IMG/VR virus record: IMGVR_UViG_2563366883_000008
Reading direction: 5' to 3' (one strand)
DNA length: 38,527 nucleotides
Source of the DNA: a virus
Taxonomy: Duplodnaviria; Heunggongvirae; Uroviricota; Caudoviricetes
Made by a program: the position numbers and the translations under genes. The first letter of the stretch is position 1; every line of letters begins with the position of its first letter. Below are positions 1 to 7,073 of this stretch, piece after piece. The notes beneath the pieces were generated by a model. That model ran no database searches. It had not been told where the DNA came from and was given only the letters and a program-made list of their open reading frames with translations.

Positions 1-738
1 TCATTCACTCTCTTTCAAACCAGTTTTAACTGTTTGTGGTTTTGGGTAAGGCTGGACTTTGAATAGCTTTGTGTTGAGGCGTTTTCTGGCCCTCTTGTTC
101 AGAAACCGGATGTAACGAAACTGTCGGAACTTATGCACACTGGCTCTGTCGATATTAGCCCTCAGATGTTCACCTCGTTGTCCGCCTCGTTTAATGGCAT
201 TCCTGCAAATCTCGTGATACCACTCGCCATCAAGTTCATAGAATATTGTTTCATGGCTGCCTACATAATCAAAATTGCTTGCCTGATACACGACACCAAG
301 ACAGCCACAACGCTCATCTGCAAACGACTGAACCCACTGTACCTGCGGATAAAGCTGCCTGATTAGCTTGAGCGCGTAACTGATTGCCCTTGATTCGGAG
401 TTTCTCGGCATACAGTCATGCAGCCATAGCCGGTTAAGCTCCATATATTCTCGGTTCTGCGTACCCGTTACGACGCGTGCACCACTGTTTGGGTTAAGGG
501 CGTAACCCCATTGCATTACGCCAACAAGTTCCCGTTCTGAAAATATGCCCAGATGAAGGTAGGAGTTATTTACGAAACGGTGGCTGTAATGTTTATTGAC
601 GATGACCAGTCTGGCCAGCCAGCAACTTATTGTCTCAACCCGCAACTCACGGGAGCCATAACCAACGATATTGTCGTTATAGCGAATAAGTTCAGGCGTG
701 CTGATGATACGGGATGTGACTTGCTTTCTGTTCCCCAC
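1..738 (-). CDS. mom: Mom-like DNA modification protein (245 aa); stop codon at 1-3 so the gene is complete
   Basis: Last gene after gin, start overlapped by an upstream Com-like zinc-finger ORF, as in the Mu com-mom operon. Call is positional plus approximate size; not verified by alignment. Confidence 0.55.
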
Positions 739-892
739 GACAGGATTTCCTTGTGTATGTGGGGTGCTCTGTGGCGCTCGGAGATGTGATTTGATTGAGG
801 GTTTTACAGCGCGGACATTTTACTTCCAGATAACTGAAACTGGCCCGTGCCAGTAGCTTATTGCAGTGTCGGCACCGTATGTTTCGATACAT
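692..892 (-). CDS. com: Com-like zinc-finger translational activator of mom (about 66 aa from the internal ATG)
   Basis: [10 protein letters not shown]...[10 protein letters not shown] CxxC...CxxC motif resembling Mu Com; AGGAGG upstream of ATG at 890-892; 3' end overlaps mom start. The ORF-track start at 937 is a TTG. Confidence 0.6.
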
Positions 893-934: not shown

Positions 935-1080
935 CAATCGATCGACAAAAACGATCGATTCGATTTGTTTAATTGATACAACAAATAGATTGAAAAGTCA
1001 TCAACAATGATTCAGGGCGGTGATTATTTACTTAAAGAAAACGAAGAGTTAGGTGGTGAAAACGATCATAAAATGATCAT
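935..1080 (-). promoter_or_regulatory. Putative com-mom control region with clustered GATC (Dam) sites
   Basis: GATC at 940-943, 953-956, 1064-1067 and 1075-1078; palindrome GATCATAAAATGATC at 1064-1078; AT-rich; upstream of com. Mu Pmom is controlled by Dam methylation of upstream GATC sites. Confidence 0.3.
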
Positions 1081-1149
1081 TTTATTGCCTTTTTATCCAG
1101 TGAAGGTAGGATCGCGCGTATATGTAGTATGTTTCAAATCAACAGGATA

Positions 1150-1191
1150 CTACATAAAAGGGAAACCCAGCATAGCTGGAACTATGCTGGG
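1150..1191 (-). terminator. Rho-independent terminator (minus-strand sense)
   Basis: 10-bp perfect stem cccagcatag/ctatgctggg (1166-1191), loop ctggaa, followed on the minus strand by a U-rich tract. Confidence 0.5.
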
Positions 1192-1378
1192 CCGATTTAG
1201 ACAAGTTTGCATCAATGCTTTACTTCGGGACTACATAAATGGCGACTCAGATAGCGCGAACTATTCTGGGTCAATCTGTAAAAAACTGCATCAATGCTTC
1301 ACTCTGAGCTCGTGGTGTATCCTATGATATTCCCCGGCCTCCTGTAAAGCAGAGATGCATCTGTTCAGGCAGGAGAAA

Positions 1379-1585
1379 ATGGATAAACTGACCACCGACC
1401 AAAAGTTACAGGCTGCGCGAATTGCAGCTGATATCACAATTGCAGCAATGACATCCACCAGTTGTGTCTTTACCTCTTTTCATACAGCTGGTGATTCATC
1501 AGCTATGCAATTATGGAACGCGTGCTTTTCTGATGTAATTCGGGCAATCAGCGAGTCAACTGACCCTCACGAACCGCAAAAATAG
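1379..1585 (+). CDS. Hypothetical small protein (68 aa from ATG at 1379)
   Basis: Strong AGGAGAAA RBS immediately upstream of ATG; AT-rich cargo region; convergent with and overlapping 1548-1748 by 38 bp. Coding status uncertain. Confidence 0.35.
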   Translation: MDKLTTDQKLQAARIAADITIAAMTSTSCVFTSFHTAGDSSAMQLWNACFSDVIRAISESTDPHEPQK

Positions 1586-1748
1586 CGCATCTTGGGGTAC
1601 ACAGGATCTGCATCGCTATCCACATTGCAGTGGTGAAGTTTCGATCCTGTAATGTATTTTCATCAAGTCCTGAACGTAGCGCATTGATAATTTCTGCGCT
1701 TAATATTTCCAGACCTTTGGTATCGGGCTGCTTTTTGTTCTTGTCCAT
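1548..1748 (-). CDS. Hypothetical small protein (66 aa)
   Basis: ATG at 1746-1748 preceded by GAGGAAA RBS; no recognisable family. Confidence 0.4.
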   Translation of the reverse strand: MDKNKKQPDTKGLEILSAEIINALRSGLDENTLQDRNFTTAMWIAMQILCTPRCAIFAVREGQLTR

Positions 1749-1789: not shown

Positions 1790-1817
1790 CAAACCGACAG
1801 GAGAAGCTGTCGGTTTG
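1790..1817 (-). terminator. Rho-independent terminator after the 81-aa ORF
   Basis: 11-bp perfect stem caaaccgacag/ctgtcggtttg with loop gagaag, 5 nt after the stop at 1823; U-rich tail on the minus strand. Confidence 0.55.
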
Positions 1818-1822
1818 TATTG

Positions 1823-2068
1823 TTACATCATGGCACTGTCAGTTCCGGGCTGAACCGGCTCTGGTTGCTCTACGGGCTGAGGCTCATTCTCCGTGCTGTT
1901 TTCAGCCGGAGGATGGCCAACCATTCGGGCCAGCACTTCATCAACATATGCGTCGATTTGTGCCTCAAAATCCTTGCGAACCTGCGCCTTCAGCACGCGG
2001 TTCACTTCTTCAGAATAAAGTGCCTGTTTGACAAGCTCTTCAGTAACCGTGCCTTTAATCTCTGGCAT
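1823..2068 (-). CDS. Hypothetical protein (81 aa), acidic with Pro/Glu-rich C-terminus
   Basis: Strong RBS AGGAAAGGAGA before ATG; followed by an intrinsic terminator. Confidence 0.45.
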   Translation of the reverse strand: MPEIKGTVTEELVKQALYSEEVNRVLKAQVRKDFEAQIDAYVDEVLARMVGHPPAENSTENEPQPVEQPEPVQPGTDSAMM

Positions 2069-2103: not shown

Positions 2104-2289
2104 TTAAATCTGACCGGAGTCTTTCGGCTGCGGCATTACAGCACCGCTTTTTATCTTTTCCTCTGCGGCTGCATCAATTTTATTTCGAAAATAATTTCGG
2201 ATAATTTTGTAACCTCCGCTGAGGAGATAAAGCAGACACACACACGTGCAAAAATAAAGCATAAATGTATGTAGTATTGGCATAATCAC
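2104..2289 (-). CDS. Hypothetical small membrane protein (61 aa)
   Basis: N-terminal hydrophobic helix (ILHTFMLYFCTCVCLLYLL); GGTGAG RBS; directly downstream of the esterase gene. Confidence 0.4.
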   Translation of the reverse strand: MIMPILHTFMLYFCTCVCLLYLLSGGYKIIRNYFRNKIDAAAEEKIKSGAVMPQPKDSGQI

Positions 2290-2318
2290 TCACCATTTTA
2301 AATAAAATGAATTACCCG

Positions 2319-4400
2319 TCATTTATTCACATTAGACGAAGAGACCGCATCGTTAACCTGCACTTTAATTGTGTCAAACAACATCGGGTAAGTGGCTGCA
2401 TTGCCGGTAATATCGGTCAGTGTCAGTTGATCCACCGTGAACCCGGCATTCACCCACTTCACAAGTTCAAATGGTTCACCATCTTTCCCGTCCAGAACTG
2501 GGGTAACACTCATGCTATTACCACCTGCAAACCGTAACGAGAGCGTATGCCATTCATGATCAAAGACACCATACGATCCTATCTGTTGACTTCCGCTCCC
2601 TTTGTGATACATCACATTCAGGTTAGCTGAATCCGTTTGCAGGAAACATGATGCGATGAGGTTATTTTTTCCGTCACCGTCAGGCCAGTTACTTACAGCC
2701 CAGTAAATACCAACACCATACCGGTTTTCCGCAATGCCCGCATCCGATGGAATTTTGAAACGGAGGGAAATATCACCACCTCTGGCGAACAAATCCCTGG
2801 CATTATCAGCTGTGATCGGATGATACATTTTCCATGAGGCCATGCTGTTAGGCGCTTTATTCACCCTTAACGCTTTGTTACCACCTGTTGCAGCAGCATC
2901 CGTGACAAAGGTTGCTTTTCCGGAAGCCGCATTCCACCCCTGATCTTTCATTGGTTCTGTCGGGGCGTTTGCAGTATACGAAACGATGATCTTCATCTGA
3001 TCGCTCACGTCCTTCACATCCCCGGTGGGTTCAGGCTCACTCTTACCGGTATCAGAATGTTCTGTTGCCGTTACACCGCGGAAGAAAGCAGATTTTTGTC
3101 CTGACAATGTCAGAATCGCTGTTGCCAGACGGTCTGAAATAATTCCACGGCGCGCCCATGAACTGAAATGGCTTGCCCTGTCGTTTGATGTCCAGTTAGT
3201 CGAATCGCGACTTATGGCACCATAATAGCCAATACCTGGAATATCCGGGTCTTCATCTGGATTATTTGTCGGTACATTTTTTCCATTTTCATCCACAACA
3301 AATGGAACAAAGTGAATGTTCTTTGCTTCATTAGCATATTTGCCATAAACAGCTTTGTATTGTTCTGGATATGTATTTTTCCAGTAATACGTCGTATCAC
3401 CACAGATCCACGGTACAGAAGCCATATCTCCGGCTGGAGATTGCGCAGAAAAAGCCGAAAGTTCACGCCTGAATGTTTCGACCATCGTCACAAACAGACC
3501 GGAATGTTCAGCATGTTTTCCTGTTTTCAGATCATTCTCGCCCTGCATCCAGACAACGGACAGGAGAATATTTCTGGGGTTACTGCTGAGAGCCGCTTTT
3601 GTTCGGTTAACAAGATCGCTGAACAAAGGTTTATTGACTCCCCAGCGCGATGATGCAGATGTTGCTCCGGAAGCTTCAGTAAATTCACCATCAGCACCAT
3701 CGGTAAATGCAGAGCCTCCTCTGGCACAGGGAACCAGAAGGATACCAGCCTCTTCCGGGATAAAGGGCAGGAGTTTTTTTGCAATATGCAAACCCTGGCC
3801 GACACAACCATACTGACCTTTTGAAAGATCTGCTTTTGGATGATTATGGTTACTCATATCCAGCACATCATGAAGACAGTGATCTGCCGGAATTATATCG
3901 TTGTAGGCGCATTCAACCCCGCCAGGTGTAACCGTGTTACGGCGAGCCAGCTGTTTAATACGTGGATCAGGTCGATCATAGGTATCAGGCAAAGGAAGAC
4001 CTTCACCAAATGACGATGCATTCGACTGACCAGCAATAACAACCACGTAATACCAGGACGGAGTTTGACCTGCAACTTTATCTCCTGCTGAAGAAGTGTA
4101 TGTTTCCGCATTGTTCCAGTCTGACGGTTCAGTAGTACCGGCAACATCAGCACTTAACGGAATGACAGCACCAATACCCGCTCCGGTAATTTCCACGTTC
4201 GGATCACCGGATACTGGCCTTACCCACAGGCAATCCCGTGTATTAAAACTGATGAGACAGTCAGCAAATGTCATACCTCCTTTCGTTTCAGCCGGAGGAA
4301 AGGGAGCCTCAAGAAATGCCGCTGTACCACCGGAAACTTTAACGGTAAAGTTTCCGGGCATTGATGATAGTTGAACCCATTTGGACGTCATAATATTCAT
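2319..4400 (-). CDS. SGNH/SASA-type carbohydrate esterase domain protein (sialate O-acetylesterase-like), 693 aa, with extra N- and C-terminal domains
   Basis: VVIAGQSNA block (GQSN nucleophile motif) in the central region; long C-terminal domain of unknown function; lies between gin and com where Mu has no gene. Family call from motif only. Confidence 0.6.
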   Translation of the reverse strand: MNIMTSKWVQLSSMPGNFTVKVSGGTAAFLEAPFPPAETKGGMTFADCLISFNTRDCLWVRPVSGDPNVEITGAGIGAVIPLSADVAGTTEPSDWNNAETYTSSAGDKVAGQTPSWYYVVVIAGQSNASSFGEGLPLPDTYDRPDPRIKQLARRNTVTPGGVECAYNDIIPADHCLHDVLDMSNHNHPKADLSKGQYGCVGQGLHIAKKLLPFIPEEAGILLVPCARGGSAFTDGADGEFTEASGATSASSRWGVNKPLFSDLVNRTKAALSSNPRNILLSVVWMQGENDLKTGKHAEHSGLFVTMVETFRRELSAFSAQSPAGDMASVPWICGDTTYYWKNTYPEQYKAVYGKYANEAKNIHFVPFVVDENGKNVPTNNPDEDPDIPGIGYYGAISRDSTNWTSNDRASHFSSWARRGIISDRLATAILTLSGQKSAFFRGVTATEHSDTGKSEPEPTGDVKDVSDQMKIIVSYTANAPTEPMKDQGWNAASGKATFVTDAAATGGNKALRVNKAPNSMASWKMYHPITADNARDLFARGGDISLRFKIPSDAGIAENRYGVGIYWAVSNWPDGDGKNNLIASCFLQTDSANLNVMYHKGSGSQQIGSYGVFDHEWHTLSLRFAGGNSMSVTPVLDGKDGEPFELVKWVNAGFTVDQLTLTDITGNAATYPMLFDTIKVQVNDAVSSSNVNK

Positions 4401-4490
4401 CCTGTTCCTGAATAAACAGAATTATCATATCCACAGACCGATAAACGCCATTTTGCGTTAATTCAGTAAAGGCCCAACAAAGGGAGCGTC

Positions 4491-5051
4491 TTATTTTTCC
4501 GAAACGCTCGCAGGAAAATAACGATAAAGGGTTGAAAGGCCGATATCAAAAATAAGTGCCACCTGTCTTCGGCTGACACCCCCGGCCAGTAAACGCCCGA
4601 CCTGCTCGTATTGTTCCTGCGTGAGACGACGGGGTCTGCCGCCGGTTCGTCCCCTTTCACGGGCAGCTGCAAGACCAGCCCGTGTCCGTTCGACAATCAA
4701 TTCACGCTCCATTTCTGCCAGCGCACCCATTATGTGAAAAAAGAAGCGCCCCATGGGGGTTGACGTATCAATGCTGTCAGTAAGACTACGAAAATTTATC
4801 CCCTGTTGCTGTAATTCATCTGTCAGCGCAACAAGGTGGCGCATACTGCGCCCCAGCCTGTCCAGTTTCCAGACCATCAGCGTGTCACCGGGTTTTAGTT
4901 TCTTCAGTGCCCGCTTCAGTCCCGGCCGCTGTGTTGTTTTTCCGCTCATTTTATCTTCAAAAATCTGCTCACATCCTGCACATTCCAGCGCATTTCTTTG
5001 TAAACCTGTGTTCTGGTCATTTGTTGATACGCGTATATAGCCAATCAGCAT
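4491..5051 (-). CDS. gin: Gin/Hin/Cin-family serine DNA invertase (186 aa)
   Basis: N-terminal IGYIRVSTNDQN catalytic-serine motif, C-terminal HTH; adjacent to an inverted-repeat-bounded tail-fibre segment. Confidence 0.9.
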   Translation of the reverse strand: MLIGYIRVSTNDQNTGLQRNALECAGCEQIFEDKMSGKTTQRPGLKRALKKLKPGDTLMVWKLDRLGRSMRHLVALTDELQQQGINFRSLTDSIDTSTPMGRFFFHIMGALAEMERELIVERTRAGLAAARERGRTGGRPRRLTQEQYEQVGRLLAGGVSRRQVALIFDIGLSTLYRYFPASVSEK

Positions 5052-5105: not shown

Positions 5106-5131
5106 ATCCCTGAAACCTCGGTTTACGGGAA
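5106..5131. other. gix-like recombination site (left)
   Basis: Reverse complement reads TTCCCGTAAACC-GA-GGTTTCAGGGAT, close to Mu gixL TTCCTGTAAACC-GA-GGTTTTGGATAA as I remember it; central dinucleotide sits at the outer edge of the inverted repeat. Confidence 0.6.
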
Positions 5132-5266
5132 ACGGTAAATAAGGCGGCGAATGCCCTGCCATCGGACGGCACCGCTGCGGCAGCGAATAAACTCGCCACC
5201 CCAAGAAATATTAATGGTGTTCCTTTCGACGGGACGCAGGATATCAGCATTACTTCAGGGATGACG
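5119..5266. repeat. Inverted repeat, left copy (148 bp, identical to reverse complement of 6396-6543)
   Basis: Compared base by base in the sequence; identity ends exactly at the gix centre on the outside and after ATGACG on the inside. Confidence 0.9.
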
Positions 5267-5500
5267 CAGTCAACCGCAGATGACCGGTATGTACAGAACG
5301 TTCAGCTTGGAGCACAGAGCTATCATTCACCCGGAGGCAATGAAATGTCATGGAATTACAGTGCGCCTTCCGGTTGTATGCTTTCCGGTATTAACGTGCA
5401 GGAAACAGGAAAAAACTCTGCCGATAACATTGGCGGGGTTTATTTCCGTCCTGTGCAGATATATATCAGTAATGCATGGCGTACAGTTTCATCTGTCTGA
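5261..5500 (+). CDS. Alternative tail-fibre C-terminal segment (S'v-like), not joined to the fibre gene in this orientation
   Basis: MTQSTADDRYVQNVQLGAQ parallels MTESTANQRYVTGVRLGAQ of the fibre C-terminus; in frame with the inverted repeat so inversion would fuse it to the constant part. Confidence 0.6.
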   Translation: MTQSTADDRYVQNVQLGAQSYHSPGGNEMSWNYSAPSGCMLSGINVQETGKNSADNIGGVYFRPVQIYISNAWRTVSSV

Positions 5501-6176: not shown

Positions 6177-7073
6177 TTAAATACTTGCAGCGGATACCCA
6201 ATTCCCATTAATACAATATTGTATCTGTCTGTAATAAACACGGTCATCACCACTACGCATTTCCCAGTCTCCATCAGTCTTAAAACCGGTAATCACATTT
6301 CCTGATGACAGGGAGTAATTATATTCCAGTCCGCCGCTTAATGCCTGCGCTCCCAGTCTTACCCCTGTAACATAACGCTGATTGGCTGTTGATTCCGTCA
6401 TCCCTGAAGTAATGCTGATATCCTGCGTCCCGTCGAAAGGAACACCATTAATATTTCTTGGGGTGGCGAGTTTATTCGCTGCCGCAGCGGTGCCGTCCGA
6501 TGGCAGGGCATTCGCCGCCTTATTTACCGTTTCCCGTAAACCGACGTTATCGATAAAGGTTCCTTTGTCCGCGATATCCGCGCCATTCTGATCCTTGCGC
6601 AGATAACGGTTATCACCTTCGCTCTTGCTGTAAACATCCAGATTCTGGCGGGCCGTCGGTTTATCCGGTACATCGCCAAAATTCATGGATTTCTCCAGTG
6701 CTCCCACATCATTAGCAGCCAGGCTGTCTTTTCCTGATAATCCTCCAAGCCCAAGATGACGGCGGGCAGCAGCCTGTGCTTCTGCACCTGCATCCGCAAT
6801 CTCCTTAAGGTTGTTTTTCCGGCTGTATGCGTTTGCTGCAATGATTGCCTTAATGGCTATCACCAGCTGGTTCAGTTTTGCCTTATCCGGCTGAACCTGT
6901 CCTTCTGTCAGAATGGCAAGCAGCTCTGCCTGCACGATGTTCAGCCAGTCCTGACCTATATGGCTGATCCCTTTGCGTCCGTCACCTTCAGTAAACCATT
7001 TAACCTGCGTGCCCTGTGAGGGGGCCAGTGGTGGCATATCGGTCACACCTGAATTGTTGTCGACAAAATACAT
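6177..7073 (-). CDS. Tail-fibre protein (Mu S-like): constant part plus variable C-terminus inside the invertible segment
   Basis: Follows baseplate genes; its 3' part crosses the 148-bp inverted repeat (6396-6543) and the gix-like site. Confidence 0.8.
   Translation of the reverse strand: MYFVDNNSGVTDMPPLAPSQGTQVKWFTEGDGRKGISHIGQDWLNIVQAELLAILTEGQVQPDKAKLNQLVIAIKAIIAANAYSRKNNLKEIADAGAEAQAAARRHLGLGGLSGKDSLAANDVGALEKSMNFGDVPDKPTARQNLDVYSKSEGDNRYLRKDQNGADIADKGTFIDNVGLRETVNKAANALPSDGTAAAANKLATPRNINGVPFDGTQDISITSGMTESTANQRYVTGVRLGAQALSGGLEYNYSLSSGNVITGFKTDGDWEMRSGDDRVYYRQIQYCINGNWVSAASI
6396..6543. repeat. Inverted repeat, right copy (148 bp)
   Basis: Reverse complement identical to 5119-5266; lies inside the tail-fibre coding sequence. 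Confidence 0.9.
6531..6556. other. gix-like recombination site (right)
   Basis: TTCCCGTAAACC-GA-CGTTATCGATAA; inner half-site identical to the left site, outer half-site diverged. Confidence 0.6.

Follow-up and report, generated by a model that had tools for sequence, protein, structure and literature searches.

A NanS-p-family sialate O-acetylesterase with a different N-terminal domain in a Mu-like prophage lineage of Escherichia coli

The IMG/VR record IMGVR_UViG_2563366883_000008 (Caudoviricetes; 38,527 nucleotides, the whole of which is referred to here as the window) represents a Mu-like, transposable, myovirus-type prophage in which a 693-residue protein is encoded between the invertase gene gin and the com-mom gene pair. 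Sequence and structural comparisons leave little doubt that this protein is an esterase of the NanS-p family with an intact active site. The enzyme family is a known one; what is new is an architectural variant with a different N-terminal domain, residing in Mu-like prophages, and it represents neither a new kind of enzyme nor a new system. The reading frame (2319–4400, minus strand) and a small one that follows it (2104–2289, minus strand) had both been pointed out in an original prediction made from the DNA letters, and both exist. The NCBI Prokaryotic Genome Annotation Pipeline (PGAP) annotation of the 99.8%-identical E. coli chromosome JNEC-KY203 calls the identical 693-residue coding sequence and labels it 'DUF6645 domain-containing protein'. 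The exact protein (P0004) is also present at NCBI, where it belongs to a 129-sequence cluster and bears the name 'sialate O-acetylesterase'. An alternative ATG start at 4391 would yield an N-terminus beginning MTSKW, as found in related alleles.

An AlphaFold2 model of the protein, built on a 21-sequence alignment, displayed three folded parts (residues 8–81, 113–433, and 469–685) connected by low-confidence linkers (residues 82–111 and 435–467). The resulting domain layout is as follows, with pLDDT denoting the predicted local distance difference test score:

4158–4400, minus strand: N-terminal domain, residues 1–81, a small all-beta cupin-like barrel of no known family
4065–4157, minus strand: disordered linker 1, residues 82–112 (pLDDT below 50 at residues 81–111)
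3102–4064, minus strand: SGNH type II/SASA catalytic domain, residues 113–433 (Pfam SASA; PDB 3PT5; Foldseek)
2997–3101, minus strand: disordered linker 2, residues 434–468 (pLDDT below 50 at residues 435–467)
2346–2996, minus strand: C-terminal lectin-like jelly-roll domain (DUF6645), residues 469–685 (Pfam DUF6645; PDB 6YP6; Foldseek)

Profile searches placed the Pfam SASA family at residues 119–316 (E = 3.9e-12, 46.7 bits against a cut-off of 24.8 bits) and DUF6645 at residues 540–647 (E = 1.5e-32). Residues 113–431 matched E. coli NanS/YjhS, a 9-O-acetyl-N-acetylneuraminic acid esterase (PDB 3PT5, E = 7.7e-114), while residues 472–683 matched the C-terminal domain found in NanS-p from phage phi24B (PDB 6YP6, E = 2.6e-51). 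Foldseek comparison of the AlphaFold2 model revealed the same relationships, with a template modeling (TM) score of 0.84 and 54% identity to 3PT5 and a TM score of 0.89 to 6YP6, and the next-best match was the sialic-acid-binding lectin domain of the Vibrio cholerae sialidase (2W68, E = 7.5e-9). The original prediction had described a GQSN esterase motif in the central region of the protein, flanked by unrecognized N- and C-terminal domains. The motif is present at residues 124–127, within the SASA domain, and the N-terminal ~112 residues belong to no family, but the C-terminal region turned out to be the DUF6645/NanS-p lectin-like domain. When 50,697 phage records were searched with tblastn, 347 gave a match to the protein, nearly all of them Shiga toxin (Stx)-converting or other lambdoid phages of E. 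coli and Shigella, at ~56% identity and only across residues ~114–683; NanS-p at this identity was counted in 334 records, and several of the matched genes bear the annotation yjhS, nanS, or 'SASA family carbohydrate esterase'.

In NanS, Ser19 and His301 are catalytic, Gln18 is located in the oxyanion hole, and the usual catalytic Asp is lacking (PMC9063846). HMMER alignment equated Gln18, Ser19, and His301 with Gln125, Ser126, and His411 of the window protein (codons at 4023–4028 for Gln125 and Ser126 and at 3168–3170 for His411), and all three residues were invariant among the 21 aligned family members. His411 belongs to a RASH motif at residues 408–411; block IV of NanS-p is known in two variants, of which RASH is one (PMC10462455). 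The predicted SASA/SGNH assignment was thereby borne out, with the domain detected and the catalytic Ser and His present, the Asp being naturally lacking in this family (PMC9063846).

The chromosomal NanS (YjhS, 3PT5) and the window protein share the SGNH type II fold, the Ser/His dyad, and the oxyanion-hole Gln. NanS was crystallized as a single domain (a chain of 337 residues), whereas the window protein is three-domained, prophage-borne, and devoid of a segment resembling a signal peptide. NanS itself is the product of a chromosomal sialic-acid catabolism gene and possesses a signal peptide. The NanS-p proteins of Stx and other lambdoid prophages (L0105/z1466 of 933W; vb_24B_21, or gp84, of phi24B) have in common with the window protein both the catalytic and the lectin domain, the Gln-Ser...His site, and the GQSN and RASH blocks; they likewise lack a signal peptide, carry disordered inter-domain linkers, and are followed by DUF1378 and DUF826 genes.

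Experiments have established that members of the NanS-p family remove O-acetyl groups from 5-N-acetyl-9-O-acetylneuraminic acid (Neu5,9Ac2) and from mucin glycans (review: PMC8065619). For the NanS-p of phi24B, four aromatic residues have been put forward as sugar-binding (Y510, Y515, Y540, and F611; PMC10462455); they are kept in the window protein, where they align with Y561, Y566, F586, and F654, respectively. Judging from this homology and from the matches of the lectin domain, the substrate is probably the 9-O-acetyl group of sialic acids on mucin. Among the roles offered by the original prediction, action on host sialoglycans is the best supported, by homology, and remodeling of O-antigen or capsule has no specific support.

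The N-terminal domain sets the window protein apart from its lambdoid relatives. The NanS-p proteins of Stx and lambdoid prophages begin with a DUF1737 capsid-docking domain, whereas the window protein has an unrelated beta domain of ~80 residues in its place. Across residues 1–81, identity to the DUF1737-type proteins was 11–19%, these proteins could be aligned only from about residue 114, and residues 1–118 gave no Pfam match even at E ≤ 10. Linker 1 is also poorly conserved (26–60% identity among cupin-type alleles and lower against DUF1737-type alleles), as is linker 2 (4–20% against other alleles). In phi24B, gp84 is among the most abundant virion proteins and decorates the capsid; it is full-length in fresh particles and processed upon storage, and a hexamer of its DUF1737 domain sits as a plug in the hexon at the center of every capsid face (bioRxiv 10.64898/2026.04.10.717836). 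The domain replaced in the window protein is the very one that attaches the enzyme to the phi24B particle.

Tracing the N-terminal domain across genomes revealed a strict link to Mu-like backbones. All 38 loci that contain it (four identified through diverged alleles and 34 in IMG/VR) fuse it to the esterase and, where the flanking DNA suffices, display Mu-like baseplate genes upstream and either com-mom or com with a methylase gene downstream; no case of the domain in another backbone was found. Three diverged alleles, with N-terminal domains 57%, 70%, and 81% identical to that of the window, all reside in Mu-like prophages, located after the Mu-type baseplate, tail-fiber, and tail-fiber-assembly genes. 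Each of their loci is followed by DUF1378, DUF826, and a 66-residue open reading frame (ORF) and, where the contig extends, by com with mom or a C5 methylase gene; gin was called at the loci of allele P0042. Within the 34 IMG/VR loci, DUF1378 and DUF826 were found downstream in 31 (the other three matches lie near a contig end), Mu-type baseplate genes upstream in 21–22, and com in 26. A one-genome-per-species scan returned no copy of the domain, and a word-indexed search with the domain alone returned E. coli fragments only. Searched exhaustively with HMMER, a set of 1.84 billion representatives yielded five matches, in which the domain did not occur outside this type of esterase, save for a weak motif match (E = 1.5e-4) to the tail-fiber-like repeat protein P0128, on which we do not rely. 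No paralog of the domain was found among the ORFs of the window. These observations support a backbone-specific role for the N-terminal domain, and our literature search found no description of the domain or of NanS-p in Mu-like prophages.

Two kinds of variation were observed at the edges of the diverged loci. At L007 and L008 (upstream of 7001), no gin was called; tblastn recovered a sequence resembling gin in L007 (80% identity, 98% query coverage) and none in L008, and in both the esterase gene, together with its conserved upstream region, is kept directly after the tail-fiber genes. In the prophages carrying the P0042 allele, a 350-residue C5 DNA methyltransferase (PF00145) takes the place of mom after com (L004, 10792–11844; L005, 7761–8813; L006, 4521–5573), so that the terminal DNA-modification gene appears swapped; among these three, com was called only in L006.

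The catalytic and lectin domains follow a different pattern of conservation. The commoner Mu-type alleles (P0005 and P0015, 669–679 residues; also in the Mu-like element of LC727881 and LC727895) share the three-domain architecture and the position after gin, and their flanks are close to those of the window, with gin 99% and DUF826 95% identical. Against P0005 and P0015, residues 1–81 of the window protein are 99% identical, but the catalytic domain only 69%, the lectin domain 43–47%, and DUF1378 57%, so that the window carries a distinct cassette. The window allele is in fact equally distant from every other allele, whether Mu- or Stx-type (catalytic domain 66–72%, lectin domain 35–54%). DUF1378, at 57–64% identity to other copies, behaves like the catalytic and lectin domains, and DUF826, the 66-residue ORF, com, and gin each have a counterpart of 92–100% identity in one or more of the related prophages. 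In IMG/VR, at least three types of cassette were found behind an N-terminal domain that is 97–99% identical, namely that of the window, a second with a lectin domain 33–34% and a DUF1378 81% identical to those of the window, and a third with a lectin domain mostly 43–45% and a DUF1378 57% identical. The presence of such different cassettes within a constant frame indicates that the esterase–lectin–DUF1378 segment has been exchanged by recombination. A recent transfer from an Stx phage was considered as its origin and rejected, as blastn detects no similarity between positions 938–2320, distal to the esterase, and Stx phages, and as the catalytic domain is no closer to Stx-type than to Mu-type alleles. 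Among the DUF1737-type NanS-p entries, P0070 and P0071 have stretches of the esterase domain duplicated internally in tandem; these duplications may be assembly artifacts or products of recombination.

Of 5426 complete E. coli genomes, 205, O157:H7 strains included, contained DNA of the window's N-terminal-domain type (at ≥90% identity), and four had near-identical copies (99.5–99.8%) of the window's 4.1-kb block. Strains with the window's allele include JNEC-KY203, STEC2018-607, and CP55_Sichuan. The prophage backbone is ~90% identical to a 'Mu-like phage' that two Japanese Stx phages (LC727881 and LC727895) carry as an insertion, and at the DNA level it shares next to nothing with Mu, D108, or SfMu. 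The original prediction had presented the module as a cargo block, but it is a long-standing feature of one Mu-like prophage lineage in E. coli and Shigella (at least 205 of the 5426 genomes) and no one-off insertion.

The right end of the element has the features of a Mu-like phage, with gin beside an invertible tail-fiber segment and a terminal com-mom pair. As in phage Mu, gin, com, and mom follow one another in this order and orientation, with a GATC-rich control region upstream of com. Between gin and com, the window holds the esterase module, the 66-residue ORF, and a pseudogene. The gin stop lies at 4491 and the com start at 892 (PGAP) or 937 (longest ORF), giving an insert of ~3.55 kb, as against a 95-bp gap in Mu (gin end 35673, com start 35768), in agreement with the ~3.5 kb of additional DNA noted originally. 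The features of the block and its boundaries are the following:

4491–5051, minus strand: gin-type DNA invertase gene, upstream boundary of the block (Pfam Resolvase, E = 2.7e-51, and HTH_7; phrog_125 'DNA invertase')
4401–4490, minus strand: intergenic region between gin and the esterase gene, with ribosome-binding site AGGAACAGG and conserved stretch TTTACTGAATTAACGCAAAA...TATGATAAT (from the sequence)
2319–4400, minus strand: NanS-p-family esterase coding sequence, 693 residues (ORF; PGAP coding sequence WP_001536758.1; phrog_143, E = 1.2e-260)
2104–2283, minus strand: gene for a small single-pass DUF1378 membrane protein (Pfam DUF1378, E = 2.2e-23; phrog_494; PGAP; hydropathy)
1823–2068, minus strand: gene for a DUF826 protein, 81 residues (Pfam DUF826, E = 1.2e-15; phrog_311; PGAP; strong Shine-Dalgarno sequence)
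1790–1817, minus strand: terminator-like hairpin with an 11-bp stem and six G-C pairs, 5 nucleotides past the DUF826 stop (pattern scan and sequence)
1548–1748, minus strand: conserved 66-residue ORF between the module and com (GAGGAAA ribosome-binding site; PGAP coding sequence)
692–892, minus strand: com, downstream boundary of the block (Pfam Zn_ribbon_Com, E = 3.3e-12; PGAP coordinates)
1–738, minus strand: mom (Pfam Mom, E = 1.4e-77)

The small protein encoded after the esterase had been predicted to be a 61-residue membrane protein. It does carry a strongly hydrophobic N-terminal segment (mean Kyte-Doolittle value of 2.07 over 19 residues from residue 5 of the 61-residue reading) and belongs to DUF1378, but its length depends on the start, being 61 residues from the GTG at 2289 and 59 from the ATG at 2283, where PGAP calls it ('DUF1378 family protein'). 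The order and orientation of esterase, DUF1378, and DUF826 in the window are those of the Stx phage TL-2011c, in which stxAB, the SASA esterase, a 41-residue ORF, DUF1378, DUF826, holin, and lysozyme genes follow one another. The surroundings differ, as the Stx-phage nanS-p lies between stx/Q and the holin gene of a lambdoid backbone and the window esterase between gin and com-mom of a Mu-like one, and the 41-residue ORF found between nanS-p and DUF1378 in Stx phages is missing from the window. In tblastn searches, DUF1378 was matched in 309 phage records with a taxon breakdown near that of nanS-p (Stx2a-converting, 124 vs 124; Stx2c-converting, 17 vs 17), and it is located ~150 bp downstream of nanS-p wherever the coordinates are comparable. 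This shared distribution and proximity indicate that the two genes travel together in two unrelated phage backbones. Our literature search found no published function for DUF1378 or DUF826; DUF1378, which accompanies the esterase in both backbones and covaries with the cassette, may be needed for release or assembly of the enzyme. The hairpin at 1790–1817 probably marks the 3′ end of the module transcript, with a T-tract that is weak (ATTTTCA).

Downstream of the module, the 66-residue ORF is 95–100% identical across related Mu-like prophages and matched no family in Pfam, PHROGs, NCBIfam, or PADLOC; its 3′ end convergently overlaps a 76-residue ORF (1355–1585, plus strand), and at the equivalent location relatives carry a 68-residue ORF. 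The pseudogene (1007–1385, plus strand) is frameshifted and incomplete according to PGAP. A 106-residue ORF in this region (1007–1327) matches phrog_26524 (E = 2.4e-33), whose function is not known, and a hairpin with a 13-bp stem lies within it at 1164–1193. Just upstream of com, a GATC-rich palindrome (AATCGATCGacaaaaaCGATCGATT, 936–960) resembles the cluster of GATC sites upstream of Mu com, which we regard as the region through which Dam and OxyR control Pmom; its spacing to com is shorter than in Mu. The first three positions of the window are the mom stop codon, and the right end of the prophage (attR) falls outside. On the other side of the block, inverted repeats of 179 nucleotides (95% complementary; 5114–5292 and 6370–6548) bracket a 1077-nucleotide segment adjoining gin that holds a tail-fiber C-terminus and assembly genes and constitutes an invertible host-range switch; the repeats of the Mu G segment, at 34 bp, are far shorter. 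A role of the block in defense was also considered and found unsupported, as NCBIfam and PADLOC scans of all six block proteins gave no match.

By hydropathy, the 693-residue protein has no hydrophobic N-terminal segment, so an extracellular substrate could be reached only through lysis or attachment to particles. In the 90-bp gap between gin and the esterase gene, a good ribosome-binding site is accompanied by a stretch that is conserved in diverged Mu-like prophages, some of them with no called gin.

Taken as a whole, the explanation that we favor, and consider somewhat probable, is a mucin-directed sialate O-acetylesterase of the NanS-p family equipped with a backbone-specific N-terminal adaptor. 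Its SGNH type II domain would hydrolyze the O-acetyl ester of 9-O-acetylated sialic acids, with Ser126 as the nucleophile, His411 as the base, Gln125 contributing to the oxyanion hole, and, as in NanS, no catalytic Asp. The lectin-like domain would hold the enzyme on sialoglycans such as gut mucin. We infer that the enzyme would meet its extracellular substrate only upon prophage induction, either released by lysis or carried on particles. The esterase gene is the first of a conserved esterase–DUF1378–DUF826 module, a three-gene order that also precedes the lysis genes of Stx and lambdoid phages, and the N-terminal domain with its flexible linker would act as an adaptor to the backbone, most likely by docking the enzyme to the Mu-like particle, with oligomerization as the alternative. 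The analogy with DUF1737 and the strict link to Mu-like backbones make virion docking plausible, and we put it forward tentatively; that the cupin-like domain displays the esterase and lectin on Mu-like contractile-tailed particles is a rather doubtful extension of it. The originally suggested virion-associated enzyme has become credible for this family through phi24B gp84, but the domain that docks gp84 is the part that is replaced here (bioRxiv 10.64898/2026.04.10.717836).

Several observations weigh against this interpretation. Hydropathy was the only measure by which a signal peptide was judged absent, the esterase gene, placed after gin, is part of neither the head nor the tail operon, and our promoter scan found sites no more numerous than in shuffled sequence, so that none was assigned. 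Upstream of the esterase gene, there is no Pmom-like GATC cluster, the sole one being upstream of com. The fold matches of the N-terminal domain are weak and its divergence is fast; between two haplogroups with 93%-identical baseplate proteins, it is ~60% identical, which is not quite the pattern to be expected for a domain that binds a conserved structural protein. Finally, the allele's catalytic domain is only 66–72% and its lectin domain 35–54% identical to those of any other allele, and at such low identity the substrate could differ.

The same evidence can be read in other ways. The protein could be a 'moron' that serves the fitness of the lysogen and is no virion component, a shared good, produced by the lysogen or by a sub-population undergoing lysis, that turns the Neu5,9Ac2 of mucus into usable N-acetylneuraminic acid (Neu5Ac), with an N-terminal domain for oligomerization or stability. 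Such was the standard view of NanS-p before 2026, and growth on Neu5,9Ac2 does depend on nanS-p alleles (PMC8065619); moreover, the gene adjoins gin and mom, outside the structural operons, and its position on the same strand 90 bp downstream of gin makes read-through from the gin promoter possible. However, a protein without a signal peptide would still require lysis to reach mucin, phi24B gp84, the sole family member examined in purified virions, is structural, and a merely oligomerizing domain would have no obvious reason to be exchanged with each change of backbone. We regard the moron as unlikely, while taking it seriously. Lower still we rate a receptor-modifying enzyme, acting on O-acetylated O-antigen, on the O-acetylated polysialic acid (K1) capsule, or on another exopolysaccharide, that would aid adsorption or release or block superinfection. 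Such a role would suit a gene that directly follows the tail-fiber genes and the invertible host-range segment and a protein whose lectin domain is its most variable structured part (35–54% identity), as well as the shuffling of the catalytic/lectin/DUF1378 cassette behind a constant N-terminal domain in the manner of receptor-binding modules, and published work has suggested such a role for NanS-p as an untested idea (PMC8065619). Nevertheless, the substrate of all characterized relatives is 9-O-acetyl sialic acid, either free or bound to mucin (PMC8065619), the catalytic domain has its nearest match in chromosomal NanS, an enzyme of sialic-acid catabolism, the nearest structural match of the lectin domain outside the family is a sialic-acid-binding module, and the carriers are mostly Shiga toxin-producing E. 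coli of varied serotypes, whose surfaces may not be sialylated.

It is very improbable that the gene is a decaying or inactive remnant, passively carried after recombination with a lambdoid prophage. The frameshifted pseudogene in the neighboring region and the truncation or internal duplication of some family members (P0070 and P0071) might suggest decay. Yet the frame is intact over 693 residues with every catalytic and block residue invariant, the position of the gene is conserved across prophages whose alleles differ by 30–55% at the protein level, and the lack of DNA-level similarity between 938–2320 and the Stx-phage copies argues against a recent transfer.

NanS-p esterases allow pathogenic E. 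coli to use the O-acetylated sialic acids of gut mucus, and they have been studied and counted almost only in Stx and other lambdoid prophages. Here, a separate Mu-like lineage, which at least 3.8% of the complete E. coli genomes contain, was found to carry its own version, so that surveys of nanS-p dosage restricted to lambdoid prophages would miss copies. The domain in which this version differs corresponds to the capsid anchor described in the preprint on phi24B, which yields a testable prediction as to the presence of the enzyme on Mu-like particles and its mode of attachment. The linkage of the esterase to DUF1378 and DUF826 in two unrelated backbones also provides a first functional lead for both families. 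If the N-terminal domain does act in docking, two unrelated phage architectures, the phi24B-type podovirus with DUF1737 and the Mu-like lineage with the new domain, would have come to bear one and the same mucus-active enzyme on their virions by swapping only its anchor, and the catalytic/lectin/DUF1378 cassette would be exchanged between prophages as receptor-binding modules are.

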